A stretch of 40,116 nucleotides of DNA from a bacterium. GTDB taxonomy: Bacteria; Patescibacteriota; Doudnabacteria; UBA920; VMFF01. Within the stretch, counting starts at the first letter, position 1. Each line of letters opens with the position of its first letter. Shown one piece after another: positions 24,224-27,602 of this stretch. The notes beneath the pieces were generated by a model, which had not been told where the DNA came from, did no database searches, and saw only the letters and a program-made list of their open reading frames with translations. The translations under genes and the position numbers were made by a program. Where the stretch lies: assembly GCA_021842385.1 (NCBI GenBank), contig JAKCAE010000011.1, positions 1-40,116 of the forward strand, read 5' to 3'.

Positions 24224-24994
24224 CTAATCTGTCTGCCCCGTTTCTTCGTTATCCCTTTCTCTGTGGGAAGCTCTTTGAGCTCTTTGTTTTAATTCTCTGA
24301 TTACTTGTTTTGAGTCCATATCTTCTTTACCACGCTTTAATTTCAGGTGTTTTTCATTCTTTATCTCTGAATCTTCTGAAACCTCTGTTTGTTCAGGGAT
24401 CTCTATTTCTTTTGAAAGCTCGTCTAAAACCTCTGTGTGTTTTCCTAAAGAAACATCCAACTTCTCATCCAAATCCGCAGCCTTAATTTTGCTTTCATTT
24501 TCACTTACTTCAGTTATTCTTTTTTTAACTTCGTCATTATATTTTGTTAAATTTTGAGTAATCTCTGCTTTCCTAACTTCATCAAGGTGTCCTCTTTTAG
24601 ACAAGACTTCTGCTTCTTTCAATCTTTTAAGGGTCAACTCTGAAGCAACCCTTGCTTTTTGTTCAGAAGTTAAAGCAAAAGAAGTTTGTAGTCTTTCATT
24701 AACCTGAGTTTTAACAGGGTACAAAAAATCACCGGGAAGAGATTGTTCCGCGGCACGGGAAATTCCTGCTGTTGAAAATATCAAAACCAAAAGAGAAAGC
24801 GTTGCCACCATTCTCTTGTTCAAAAAAAGATGCAAAGAAAATCTAAAAAAAGATGTTGCCTTCTGATCCTTCCTCAATCTCTCTTCTGCAATGGCATATC
24901 TAATACCCTTAAGCATCTCATCTTTCTCGGCTCTGCTTAAACTTTGGGACTTAAAGGTTGCTATTAATTTTTCAAATTTATCTCTCTTCATCAT
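24224..24994 (-). CDS. DUF5667-like putative anti-sigma membrane protein
   Basis: TM followed by AAEQSLPGDFLYPVKTQVNE..KRLKEA; overlaps the end of the ECF sigma gene. Confidence 0.75.
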   Translation of the reverse strand: MMKRDKFEKLIATFKSQSLSRAEKDEMLKGIRYAIAEERLRKDQKATSFFRFSLHLFLNKRMVATLSLLVLIFSTAGISRAAEQSLPGDFLYPVKTQVNERLQTSFALTSEQKARVASELTLKRLKEAEVLSKRGHLDEVRKAEITQNLTKYNDEVKKRITEVSENESKIKAADLDEKLDVSLGKHTEVLDELSKEIEIPEQTEVSEDSEIKNEKHLKLKRGKEDMDSKQVIRELKQRAQRASHRERDNEETGQTD

Positions 24995-25484
24995 ATTCTT
25001 CTAAATTTAACTTCTTCTTTAACATCTTAACCCCTCTGTGCAACAGGACAGAGGCTGAGTTTTCAGAAATACCGACTGTTTTAGCAATATCCCCGGGTGA
25101 GGCATCTTCAATATATCTCAGGGTTAAAACCTTTTGATATTTTTCAGGCAACTGTCGCATTTCCTTCAAAACCCACTGAAGTTCCATAAAGTCGATGGTT
25201 TCTTCACCCTCCTTGACGAAATCAAAGCCGTTTTCTTTCAAAAGATCCAAAGAAACTTCTTTGTGCTTTCTGTAATAGTCTATAACCAGGTTTGTTGCAA
25301 CCCGATACAAAAAAGCTTTTATGTTCTCTATTTGTTTGCCTTTTTCAAGAGAATTCCATGTTCTAATGAAGGTTTCCTGGGTTAAATCCTTAGCAACTTC
25401 CCTATTTGATACACGGAAAAAACAATATCTGAAAATATGATCTGCGTACTCATTATATATCTTTTCAAAATCTGTATCTTTCAT
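24978..25484 (-). CDS. ECF RNA polymerase sigma factor
   Basis: AKDLTQETFIRTW, KAFLYRVATNLVIDYYRK, DIAKTVGISENSASVLLHRG. Confidence 0.93.
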   Translation of the reverse strand: MKDTDFEKIYNEYADHIFRYCFFRVSNREVAKDLTQETFIRTWNSLEKGKQIENIKAFLYRVATNLVIDYYRKHKEVSLDLLKENGFDFVKEGEETIDFMELQWVLKEMRQLPEKYQKVLTLRYIEDASPGDIAKTVGISENSASVLLHRGVKMLKKKLNLEEYDEER

Positions 25485-25513
25485 TAAAACAAAGTATACA
25501 CCAAAAAACAGAT

Positions 25514-25542
25514 TGTAAGAAAGTTTCCCTGACAGCGTCTAA
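25514..25542 (+). promoter_or_regulatory. Putative ECF-sigma promoter
   Basis: TGTAAG-16 bp-CGTCTAA upstream of the DUF5666 gene. Confidence 0.55.
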
Positions 25543-25612
25543 TCTACTGAAAGGTCGAAAAGACTGATTAAAACTAAACACAAAGAAAACATTTAAACGA
25601 AAGGAAAATTAC

Positions 25613-26257
25613 ATGCTAAAACTAACAAAATATATAGCTACAGGAGCCATGGCACTAAGTATCCTCCCTTTTATGGCTTCAGCACATGGATTTGATGAGG
25701 ACAAAGGTGAAAGAACAGAAATGAAAGCCTACTTTGGCGAACATCTAAACCAAGGCCTACAATATGAACATAGGGCATTCACTGGTTTGGTGACAGCGCT
25801 AAGCACAACAGGCTTTACTCTAAAAGACGCTAATGGAACTGTCTACACAGTTGTTACAGCTGACGCAAGACTTGTAAGACCATTTACAGGAAGCATTGTT
25901 CTTTCTGATATAAAGGTCAATGACAAAGCTGTTGTCAAAGGGGAACTAAAAGATAACAACACCATAGAAGCAAAATCCGTTCAAATAATGCCGGCAAATA
26001 CTCACCCGGCACTAACTAACGGAACTATCACAGCGGTCAACGGCAATACCCTAACTCTTCAAAACACACATCTAGGAGTTGTCAGCAATGTAAATATAAA
26101 GACAGATGCTAACACTCAAGTTACAAAAGACGGACAAGCGGCAACATTAGCAGATGCCACTGTTGGAACGAGAGTTAGAATAAAGGGTCTTTGGGATGAA
26201 ACACTAAACATCCTAAATGCAATTAGAATCAATATCAGAACAGCGCTAAACAAATAA
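25613..26257 (+). CDS. Secreted DUF5666-repeat protein
   Basis: Signal peptide ending ASA; two repeats (GLVTAL..LSDIKVNDKAVVKG; GTITAVNGNTLTL..LADATVGTRVRIKG). Confidence 0.78.
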   Translation: MLKLTKYIATGAMALSILPFMASAHGFDEDKGERTEMKAYFGEHLNQGLQYEHRAFTGLVTALSTTGFTLKDANGTVYTVVTADARLVRPFTGSIVLSDIKVNDKAVVKGELKDNNTIEAKSVQIMPANTHPALTNGTITAVNGNTLTLQNTHLGVVSNVNIKTDANTQVTKDGQAATLADATVGTRVRIKGLWDETLNILNAIRINIRTALNK

Positions 26258-26299
26258 CTTAATAACGGATAAAATCAGTTGATATGCCAACTGAAACAC

Positions 26300-26324
26300 A
26301 AACCACCCCGCAAGGGGTGGTTTT
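26300..26324 (+). terminator. Intrinsic terminator
   Basis: aaaccacccc-gcaa-ggggtggtttt. Confidence 0.85.
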
Positions 26325-26339
26325 AATATTGTTCAATTC

Positions 26340-26445
26340 TTGACCTTAGTTAAAAACTAAGATATACTGGATATGTCTTTCGGTTTGTCATAAACTGAAA
26401 GGGTATTACATCCTAGAATCACCCTTCGCAAGGAGGGTGATTTTT
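26340..26445 (+). ncRNA. Candidate small-RNA unit (promoter + ~70-nt structured RNA) convergent on the NYN gene
   Basis: TTGACC(26340)-17-TATACT(26363-68); stem TCTTTCGGTTT/AAACTGAAAGG; terminator AATCACCCT..AGGGTGATTTTT ending in the NYN stop codon. Confidence 0.6.
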
Positions 26446-27013
26446 ATATCCCCTTCGACTTTCGATGTTGCAATGCCTTACCCCAAATATGTTCACCTAA
26501 ATCTAAAATTTCAAAATACCCATCAGCGCCAGTTCTTAATTCTTGCGAAATATTATTTTTCGAAGAAAAAATGTACACTTTTTTGCCTCGTCTGCGCAAA
26601 TATGAAACTAGAGCCAAGAAATCAGAATCACCAGTGAAAAATATGGCGATATCATAGTTTTGAAAAAAATGTACGGCATCTATCGTCATTTCAACATCCA
26701 TATTACCTTTTTCTTGAATCGATTCACCAAACTCATCAACTATACTTATCCTCTTAAGCTCTTTTTTTACAACTTCAAATTTTAAACCTTTTTTCAAAAA
26801 TGTAAAAAATTTATGTTTGGCATCTAAGCTGTATCTCCTGGTTCCCTCTGCTGGGTAGGCAGTATAATAGAATACCTTTACCTTATTTAACCTAAACTGT
26901 CTCTTTATATGTTCAAATAATTGCTGATAATCCAGGAACCTTCCTTTAGATTTCTGAGCTTGCCAAAGATTAGATGCATCAATGAAGACATAAATTGTTT
27001 TGTTGATATTCAT
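26444..27013 (-). CDS. NYN (LabA/DUF88, PIN-like) domain putative RNase
   Basis: FIDASNL, EKGNMDVEM, TGDSDF, SQELRTGAD motifs. Confidence 0.9.
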   Translation of the reverse strand: MNINKTIYVFIDASNLWQAQKSKGRFLDYQQLFEHIKRQFRLNKVKVFYYTAYPAEGTRRYSLDAKHKFFTFLKKGLKFEVVKKELKRISIVDEFGESIQEKGNMDVEMTIDAVHFFQNYDIAIFFTGDSDFLALVSYLRRRGKKVYIFSSKNNISQELRTGADGYFEILDLGEHIWGKALQHRKSKGI

Positions 27014-27107
27014 AGACTTAAAATAACAAGGAACACATGGAAAGAACCTAAAATATTATTAGTATATTTATAAATCCTCTTTAATACAAAAAACTTTTTT
27101 GGTCAAA

Positions 27108-27132
27108 CAAAAACCGCCAAGAGGCGGTTTTG
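27108..27132 (-). terminator. tmRNA terminator
   Basis: aaaaccgcc-aaga-ggcggtttt. Confidence 0.8.
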
Positions 27133-27143
27133 GAAACAATATC

Positions 27144-27528
27144 TGGTGGAGATGGCGGGAGTTAAACCCGCGTCCAGAAAAGGTTCCCTTAACAATTATT
27201 CACAAGCTTAGCGCGCTTTAAAGCCTTGTAGCAACAAACGCGCGAACTAACCACAAGGTTTAGTTTACAAAGATTCTTTCAGACGCGTAAACCAAACATC
27301 TGAATATATCCTGCAAATGAGGTGCGTGATCTTTTGTCGCAGGAAAACAAAAGGCGCACGTTCTTACCTAAAGATTAAGCAAGAACAAGTGAAGGAAACG
27401 CAAAAGCGTTCTTCACCTTAGCAATGAAATTGCCAATTATGATTGTGCTCAAGAATATTACGAGATTTTGAGCATACTCGGCTTGCATATTTTTAAAGGT
27501 CACTTCCCTGTCAAAATCCGGCATCCCC
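27144..27528 (-). ncRNA. ssrA: tmRNA (385 nt); tag (A)GNFIAKVKNAFAFPSLVLA*
   Basis: 5' GGGGATG..TTTTGACAG; 3' GCGGG-TTTAACT-CCCGC-CATCTCC-A-CCA with G3-U70; tag ORF 27434-27375 after ATAATT; smpB present in window. Confidence 0.93.
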
Positions 27529-27602
27529 TTAAATTACTTGCCCTTTTAGAGCAAAGACTAGTATGACACAAAAAAAGCCTTTTTTCAAGGCTTTAAATAG
27601 TG

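Follow-up and report, generated by a model that had tools for sequence, protein, structure and literature searches.

The 40,116-nucleotide (nt) stretch of DNA analysed here, hereafter the window (contig JAKCAE010000011.1 of GenBank assembly GCA_021842385.1, from a member of the Doudnabacteria, Patescibacteriota), contains a 186-bp spacer (26258-26443) that separates two convergent genes, one encoding a DUF5666 protein and the other a LabA-type nuclease of the NYN family. To judge from the comparative analyses described below, this spacer holds an independently promoted, structured small-RNA gene that is dedicated to this NYN subfamily. The RNA gene lies on the strand opposite to NYN and consists of its own sigma-70-type promoter, a first helix (P1), a single-stranded linker, and a second helix (P2) that forms an intrinsic terminator and whose U tract runs into the complement of the NYN stop codon (Table 1). 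An earlier note on the window, made from its letters alone, had singled out a terminator belonging to the DUF5666 gene, the promoter, an 11-pair stem, and a second terminator overlapping the NYN stop codon, and we could confirm every one of these elements exactly where it had placed them. It had also remarked that no antitoxin gene lies next to NYN, and the neighbours of this gene are indeed the DUF5666 gene and the gene for the transfer-messenger RNA (tmRNA).

The predicted fold of the whole spacer comprises five hairpins (z = -7.2), which are the only hairpins found downstream of NYN. In the window sequence taken alone, P1 folds as an 11-pair stem (26377-26401) and the terminator as a hairpin of 13 pairs (26415-26443), and the 73-nt unit that they form has a minimum free energy of -29.6 kcal/mol (z = -5.7), with none of 200 shuffled sequences folding equally well. 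The promoter match is, within the window alone, not beyond chance, since 3 kb of the window contain 13 promoter-like sites against 7.9 +/- 2.4 in shuffled sequences. What places it beyond chance is its recurrence, together with both helices and the position of the stop codon, in 80 of 80 related loci.

Table 1. Elements of the small-RNA/NYN module in the window, followed by the neighbouring features
Feature	Position	Strand	Basis or remark
Two-gene module (small-RNA gene and NYN gene with its upstream region), common to sister species G003	26339-27071		blastn, 85% identity
Sigma-70-type promoter of the small RNA, TTGACC-17-TATACT	26340-26368	+	10/12 consensus positions
7-pair hairpin in the promoter spacer, CTTAGTT-AAA-AACTAAG	26345-26361	+	fold of the intergenic region
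Small RNA, ~72 nt, predicted to run from the G of GUCU into the U tract	26375-26447	+	covariance model R1, 85.7 bits, E 1.9e-21
Helix P1, 10 covarying pairs (26377-26386 with 26392-26401), variable loop	26377-26401	+	alignment columns 5-14/24-33
14-nt single-stranded linker, GGUAUUACAUCCUA in the window, family consensus GGUAUUACAUCCAA	26402-26415	+	conservation across the family
Helix P2, intrinsic terminator, 12 pairs	26416-26443	+	alignment columns 48-59/64-75
Terminator U tract	26441-26448	+	overlaps the complement of the NYN stop codon, 26444-26446
NYN (LabA-type, PF01936) nuclease gene, 189 aa	26444-27013	-	Pfam NYN, E 5.9e-25
DUF5666 gene	25613-26257	+	Pfam, E 6e-10
Terminator-like hairpin	26275-26294	-	followed by TTTTATCC; hairpin prediction
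10-pair terminator-like hairpin, DUF5666 terminator	26300-26323	+	terminator scan
Extracytoplasmic function (ECF)-type sigma factor gene	24978-25484	-	same block as the DUF5667 and divergent DUF5666 genes
DUF5667 gene	24224-24994	-	block conserved with G003, 73% identity
tmRNA gene	27144-27528	-	Rfam, 133.8 bits

To characterize the unit, we started from the protein, taking one genome per species; this gave 213 relatives of the NYN protein, of which the best 80 (65-92% identity) were analysed. After removal of one duplicate (L103, identical to L102), the alignment comprised 80 sequences, namely the window and 79 related loci. In all 80 homologous NYN loci of the survey a small-RNA unit stands convergent to NYN and abuts its stop codon, and promoter and stem are present in every one, so that the finding by which the earlier note would have been refuted, NYN homologues devoid of promoter and stem, was not made. 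The promoter scores at least 9 of 12 consensus positions in 70 of the 79 related loci and at least 7 of 12 in all of them, and its -10 element ends 6 nt ahead of the G of a GTCT motif in 74. This fixed distance sets the predicted start of the RNA at that G (GUCU in the RNA; position 26375 in the window). The other border is just as constant: in 72 of the 79 loci the stop codon lies between -6 and +7 nt from a single fixed point, the end of the U tract, the exceptions being five loci with a longer overlap (36-43 nt in four, 11 nt in one) and two with a gap of 28 or 71 nt. By their record titles, the carriers belong to many lineages of Patescibacteria (Jorgensen-, Adler-, Vogel-, Komeili-, Falkow-, Nomura-, Giovannoni-, Moran-, Azam-, Magasanik-, Yanofsky-, Taylor-, Staskawicz-, Kerfeld-, Buchanan-, and Lloydbacteria) and include one isolate of Bacteroidota, the cultured Niastella vici DJ57 (L096), and the NYN proteins are 65-73% identical between many of these lineages. 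Some depositor labels look unreliable ('Gammaproteobacteria', for example), and the duplicated loci L102 and L103 are identical contig stretches filed under two labels, an Azambacteria and a Flavobacteriaceae metagenome-assembled genome, which reveals a conflict of binning or labelling.

The downstream regions of these NYN homologues, for which the earlier note had suggested a covariance analysis, contain two helices that covary. RNAalifold applied to the 80 sequences recovered P1 (10 pairs), a two-pair element that never varies, and P2 (the terminator, 12 pairs). Counting all cells of P1 and P2, 97.3% are paired, compared with 88.0 +/- 0.5% in shuffled alignments and 41-65% after sliding of the partner columns; 13 of the 22 pairs change on both sides, a number reached in none of 500 shuffles, and the covariation score is 0.392 against 0.208 in the control. 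P1 contributes 6 of 10 pairs changed on both sides with 94.9% of its cells paired, and P2 7 of 12 with 99.4%. Within P2 the covariation is located in the lower half, the upper half (CCYUCC/GGAGGG) being near-invariant. Several positions of the helices hold G-U pairs (columns 48/75 in all 80 sequences, 49/74 in 43, and 10/28 in 39) or U-G pairs (56/67 in 23). Since such pairs become A-C mismatches on the NYN strand, the fold under selection belongs to the strand opposite NYN. With its promoter at a fixed distance, its intrinsic terminator, and its covarying fold, the unit shows what is expected of an independent small-RNA gene.

Conservation is unevenly distributed along this RNA. Measured as mean pairwise identity in 30 sequences, it amounts to 0.73, 0.82, and 0.43 at the first, second, and third codon positions of NYN, respectively, and within the RNA to 0.42 in the P1 loop (about neutral), 0.75 in the P1 stem, 0.64 in lower P2, 0.90 in the linker, and 0.94 in upper P2; the linker bases ACATC are invariant in the 80 sequences. 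The RNA thus combines parts constrained in structure only with parts constrained in sequence. A peptide hidden in the RNA could be dismissed: although ATG, TTG, or GTG stands at the RNA start in 59 of the 80 sequences, no conserved product follows, the frames opening there either ending after 2-22 codons or staying open (26 sequences). We also looked for tandem repeats in 25500-27600 and found none, the window containing a single strong match to the covariance model R1. On the NYN strand, opposite the linker (26405-26412 in the window), 71 of 79 loci have an ATG with a stop codon immediately behind it, and GGAGGG lies 10-11 nt upstream; this may be a start-stop element on the 3' untranslated region of NYN, or a coincidence.

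The strand that encodes NYN offers few places for its own transcript to end. Just 1 of 78 loci has a terminator-like site in the stretch that runs from the NYN stop codon across the whole RNA gene, and 17 of 78 have one within 400 nt past that gene. As the other 77 loci have no NYN terminator before the RNA gene, the NYN mRNA must cross that gene and bear its perfect complement. In the window, the hairpins at 26275-26323 could end the NYN transcript once it has passed the RNA gene. A search for sequencing runs that cover 26250-27100 gave eight, all of them DNA contigs from three studies, and no RNA run.

The association is equally strict when whole genomes are surveyed. Among 41 relatives, 38 possess an NYN gene of some kind; a close copy (92% amino-acid identity) exists solely in G003, a species of the same genus, the next-best protein being 40% identical. 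Strong R1 matches are confined to the genome of the window (G000, 85.7 bits) and to G003 (85.9 bits), that is, to exactly the two genomes with a close NYN. Distant NYN paralogues in the genomes of the relatives have no RNA, and neither does the second, distant NYN gene of the window's own genome (contig C11). The same picture emerged when 151 genomes were sampled evenly across the phylum: R1 matches of at least 85 bits and NYN matches with E <=1e-30 occur in the same two genomes alone, G000 and G075; in G075 the RNA (C24:26211-26288, plus strand) adjoins NYN (26304-26846, minus strand). The module is accordingly sparse, at about 1 in 150 sampled species. Weak R1 matches (27-32 bits) appear in two other genomes, G024 and G162 (32 and 26.7 bits in the latter), and are not beside an NYN gene; the G024 match (29.5 bits), considered as a possible RNA copy, turned out to be an ordinary terminator without the linker.

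Comparison with G003 also suggests how the module travels. There it sits on the other side of the DUF5667-sigma-DUF5666 block (window 24406-26330, 73% identity by blastn). This position and the shared extent indicate that the two genes move as one unit of ~730 bp. Homology between G000 and G003 begins at the -35 hexamer, with a mean column identity of 87% overall, and the two RNAs differ by one substitution, through which the terminator has C-G in place of a U-G pair, and by a 2-nt indel in the U tract. The G003 counterpart of the sigma/DUF5667/DUF5666 block lies at L250 4824-6770, and a cold-shock-like gene is found beyond the RNA in that species. The tmRNA gene, which has a tag peptide GNFIAKVKNAFAFPSLVLA and its own terminator (~27108-27131), is directly upstream of NYN in the window and not in G003. 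Possible vehicles were sought among mobile elements. Viral contigs gave no match for two RNA patterns, and their NYN relatives are just 25-29% identical; on plasmids, none of the 72 records with an NYN relative reaches 60% identity (30-35% among the 15 listed), and phage records gave no match.

The NYN protein itself belongs to Pfam NYN (LabA-type) by sequence, fold, and acidic cluster. The Pfam match (88.9 bits against a cut-off of 24.2) covers residues 7-168, PADLOC returned its NYN model (E 1.7e-12) and, more weakly, its HEC-09 model (E 1e-7), and NCBIfam yielded nothing other than a sub-threshold match to TIGR00288. An AlphaFold2 model (predicted local distance difference test 86.9, predicted template modelling score 0.82) has a PIN-like alpha/beta fold, whose best Foldseek match is 2qip (E 1.9e-11, template modelling score 0.69/0.80), also recovered by sequence (E 1.2e-7), followed by the NYN domains of MARF1 (5yaa and 6fdl, E ~1e-5). 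The catalytic motifs, which the earlier note had judged intact, hold up among 30 NYN homologues, in which D12, N15, D106, E108, D112, D129, and D131 are invariant; the conserved acidic residues presumably act as metal ligands, as in PIN and NYN nucleases generally.

To approach the association from the other side, we searched metagenomes for the RNA with a 27-letter degenerate pattern covering the linker and upper P2, which matched at least 120 stretches, of which 80 were analysed. Sixty-five of them extend at least 620 nt past the motif, and in 56 of these an NYN match comes right after the RNA, about six of which are fragments, frameshifted remnants, or distant NYN (fragments or remnants in L136, L137, L152, L174, and L192; in L155 a 39%-identical NYN at 345 nt). 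The remaining nine have no NYN match, one of them (L162) showing an eroded remnant of the NYN C-terminus. Fourteen of the 15 shorter loci carry a partial NYN. All 10 loci devoid of NYN and all 7 with a partial NYN have an RNA promoter that scores 9 or more of 12. Next to these orphan RNAs, the convergent neighbours include Trypsin_2, a TnsA-like or restriction endonuclease, a PemK toxin, and small open reading frames, and no family recurs that could be an alternative partner. In one metagenomic locus (L179), the place of NYN is taken by a convergent gene for a PemK/MazF-type toxin, 122 nt away from an RNA copy whose P1 is degenerate. The samples examined are thus asymmetric: NYN never occurs without the RNA, and the RNA sometimes occurs without NYN.

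The genes upstream of NYN are heterogeneous in the 75 loci where we inspected them, and many are housekeeping genes. They belong to many unrelated families, so that the upstream side adds no conserved third gene to the module. Restriction-modification components are found in 9 of the 75, a figure given without a background rate; in five loci (L061, L073, L077, L093, and L101) a large gene of N6_Mtase/Eco57I type lies directly upstream of NYN on the same strand, producing a recurrent trio of restriction-modification enzyme, NYN, and convergent RNA. Other upstream neighbours include AbiEii, Fic, GIY-YIG, T5orf172, SNase, and two more NYN genes. Inspection by eye of the 5' regions of NYN, which cannot be aligned, revealed no conserved target on which the RNA could act in trans, no formal duplex search having been carried out.

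A further signal accompanies the RNA promoter in part of the family. The 9-mer TTATCCACA, which we take to be the DnaA box motif, is found with at most one mismatch just upstream of the -35 hexamer (zone -64 to -37, 28 nt) in 57 of 148 distinct loci, or ~40%, with 30 exact and 27 one-mismatch boxes in either orientation, starting at -45 to -60. By comparison, 2960 control windows from the same loci contain no exact box and 13 with one mismatch. Carriers include L053, L060, L065, L079, L150, and L175. This enrichment suggests that DnaA may control the RNA promoter in many members of the family. The box is present neither in the window (26311-26338) nor in G003. The window has a 7-pair hairpin in its promoter spacer, of which G003 keeps just a 4-pair form (CCTA-AAAGC-TAGG) and which is not family-wide; it might be an operator-like site in place of the DnaA box of other members.

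We consider it reasonably, if not strongly, probable that the RNA is an antitoxin-like, dedicated negative partner of the NYN nuclease, acting at two levels. Four features prompt this reading, all of them habits of toxin-antitoxin and defence systems: the asymmetry of loss, a sparse spread combined with high similarity, relocation, and neighbours that are partly of defence type. The overlap of the 3' ends at the stop codon opens the way to antisense action of the kind known from 3'-overlapping type I systems, with which the geometry of the predicted transcripts agrees. The NYN mRNA, without a terminator of its own, would carry from its stop codon a ~70-nt perfect complement of the RNA, and pairing with an abundant small RNA would create a duplex for ribonuclease III (RNase III), an enzyme encoded in this genome, so that the 3' end of the NYN mRNA would be stripped or destabilized. 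Hfq was not found in this genome, which is 90% complete, and this is neutral for the reading. The second level would involve protein. Cis-antisense pairing needs no particular sequence, and the invariance of the linker and upper P2 therefore argues for a sequence-specific recognition; NYN being the sole constant partner, we take it as the most likely protein to recognize the RNA. Linker and upper P2 would then form the recognized surface, with the RNA serving as a bound inhibitor or a pseudo-substrate of a nuclease that is presumably toxic when free. In the ~40% of members with a DnaA box at the promoter, the window not among them, this box would tie the supply of antidote to the replication initiator. 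Another possible use of the conserved letters, mimicry of the 3' end of the 16S ribosomal RNA, was rejected, as the 16S end of G075 (located through Rfam RF00177) shares just CAAGG and the following hairpin with the RNA, and a short 16S-end motif has no match in the window's own genome or in 20 relatives. In the G075 16S gene (L236 ~1033-1560), several hundred extra bases are inserted close to the 3' end, so that ~470 nt separate the conserved 3' terminal helix from the break in normal 16S sequence.

Several observations weigh against a negative partner. The NYN-first sample was made of the best 80 of 213 relatives, and the RNA pattern demanded an intact core, so that the orphan RNAs it recovered were pre-selected to look functional; the nine well-promoted orphans fit an RNA with a function of its own equally well. 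The excess of restriction-modification neighbours lacks a background comparison. In addition, HEC-09, the one tested NYN defence candidate that our search brought up and whose model our protein matches weakly, gave no phage protection in Escherichia coli according to the available part of the study (10.1101/2024.01.29.577857).

The same RNA could instead be a positive partner, that is, a cofactor, scaffold, or guide in an NYN ribonucleoprotein, or a dedicated processing substrate. We regard this as rather unlikely, even though strict co-occurrence fits it as well as it fits an antidote, as do the conservation of linker and upper P2 and the single-copy, structured nature of the RNA, and an RNA-dependent activity is conceivable for bacterial LabA-type NYN proteins, which have no known function in the available text of their classification (PMC5499597). 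A positive partner should not, however, outlive its enzyme, and here RNAs with good promoters persist where NYN is lost or broken (9 plus ~6 of 65 loci), whereas no intact NYN was found without the RNA; the convergent overlap at the stop codon would have no role, nor would the lack of an NYN terminator, and a sequence so nearly constant cannot be a variable guide. Another possibility is a purely cis-antisense mechanism of type I style, in which the RNA would act only by pairing with the NYN mRNA at its 3' end and would be recognized by no protein. The convergent overlap in all 80 loci, an NYN strand that in 77 of 78 has no terminator ahead of the RNA gene, the presence of RNase III, and the strong, near-consensus promoter all agree with such a mechanism. 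It nevertheless leaves unexplained why the linker and upper P2 are 90-94% identical when neutral sites are at 42-43%, why G-U pairs keep the fold on one strand specifically, and why orphan RNAs, with no NYN mRNA to pair with, retain promoters and cores, and we consider it improbable as the whole account.

The linkage might also be without functional meaning, the RNA being an independent small RNA with a target elsewhere, or simply a shared terminator region, that stays beside NYN by descent only. Orphan copies exist, the module is so short that co-inheritance costs nothing, and a region that supplies the only hairpins downstream of NYN could serve as a shared terminator. Yet the geometry is kept where third codon positions of NYN are near saturation and in unrelated neighbourhoods, and no sampled genome has the RNA without this NYN subfamily, save for the weak, terminator-like matches of 27-32 bits. 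A shared terminator, moreover, would need neither its own promoter at a fixed distance nor an invariant linker, and these explanations are in our opinion very improbable. A more elaborate version of the antitoxin-like reading, which we hold to be doubtful, would make the pair a nuclease-RNA conflict module of a new class in which the RNA masks NYN by binding, trims its mRNA by 3' antisense, and, through the promoter box of ~40% of members, reports the state of DnaA. A replication arrest, or a phage or plasmid hijacking DnaA, would then unleash the nuclease.

Whichever its mode of action, the pair resembles several known systems, and we assign it to neither type I nor type III toxin-antitoxin. 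In type III systems (ToxIN, CptIN, TenpIN), an endoribonuclease toxin is encoded downstream of an RNA antitoxin made of tandem repeats on the same strand, with a terminator in between, and the RNA binds and inhibits the toxin. Our pair shares with them the combination of an endoribonuclease-type protein and a small gene for a structured RNA that ends in a terminator of its own, the lack of a protein antidote, an accessory and patchy distribution, and, under the reading that we favour, the recognition of a folded RNA. It differs in that its RNA is a single unit rather than a tandem repeat array, in that in all 80 loci the RNA gene comes after the enzyme gene and faces it convergently, and in the NYN/PIN-like fold of the enzyme, which is not that of ToxN. 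VapBC systems, which are accessory and often multi-copy or mobile, associate a PIN-domain toxin with a protein antitoxin. They have in common with our pair a metal-dependent nuclease of the PIN superfamily and a tightly linked partner gene, but here the partner is an RNA, not co-transcribed upstream, and the nuclease is of the NYN branch rather than a VapC.

The arrangement of the genes resembles that of txpA/RatA and bsrG/SR4 of Bacillus subtilis, type I pairs whose toxin mRNA is overlapped at its 3' end by the antisense RNA. Tail-to-tail genes, a strong promoter proper to the RNA, and RNase III are shared, and a 3' overlap of the transcripts is predicted from the geometry. In contrast with the membrane peptides of fewer than 60 aa of type I, however, the protein here is a soluble enzyme of 189 aa, and the RNA sequence is conserved far beyond the need of antisense pairing. 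The NYN module also spans many classes, while type I systems are described as narrow-range in the accessible part of a published account (PMC5367252). A small RNA opposite the gene of a nuclease-like protein rather than of a membrane peptide is a trait that the module shares with SymE-SymR of Escherichia coli. SymR overlaps the 5' end of the SymE mRNA, whereas our loci overlap at the 3' end and encode an NYN protein, and those with a promoter signal have a DnaA box. According to the consulted sections of a published account, this cis-encoded RNA controls the synthesis of SymE, a nuclease-like toxic protein that is a relative of the antitoxin MazE and on which LexA and Lon exert a further repression (PMC1891008). 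Finally, the protein shares sequence, fold, and catalytic residues with LabA-type NYN proteins (COG1432; PDB 2qip VPA0982; the NYN domain of MARF1), and it departs from those described so far by its RNA, as the portion of the classification paper available to us names no RNA partner (PMC5499597).

The RNA has no counterpart in Rfam 15, which at gathering scores returns the tmRNA alone in the window; a scan of four loci with E up to 10 found nothing on the RNA apart from a sub-threshold Phe_leader match in L096 (29.6 bits against a threshold of 55). Our literature search found no paper on an NYN-associated bacterial small RNA (supplementary files were outside the search), and the words NYN and LabA do not occur in the accessible portions of PMC5737381 and PMC11109978. 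With more than 200 loci, this is a new RNA family from a phylum in which almost nothing is known about regulatory RNA, and Niastella vici DJ57, which has been cultured, makes experiments feasible. It also provides a concrete, testable lead on the large bacterial LabA-type NYN family, for which, as far as the available part of the classification paper goes, functional studies are lacking and a function is not established (PMC5499597). If the RNA is a true antidote, an enzyme of the PIN superfamily would be added to the known toxins, with a hybrid mode of antisense plus binding. The nuclease-RNA conflict module that we hold to be doubtful would, if true, supply the first mechanism for a bacterial LabA/NYN protein and a toxin-antitoxin type that merges the logic of types I and III, and the DnaA box at the promoter would connect the module to the control of replication.

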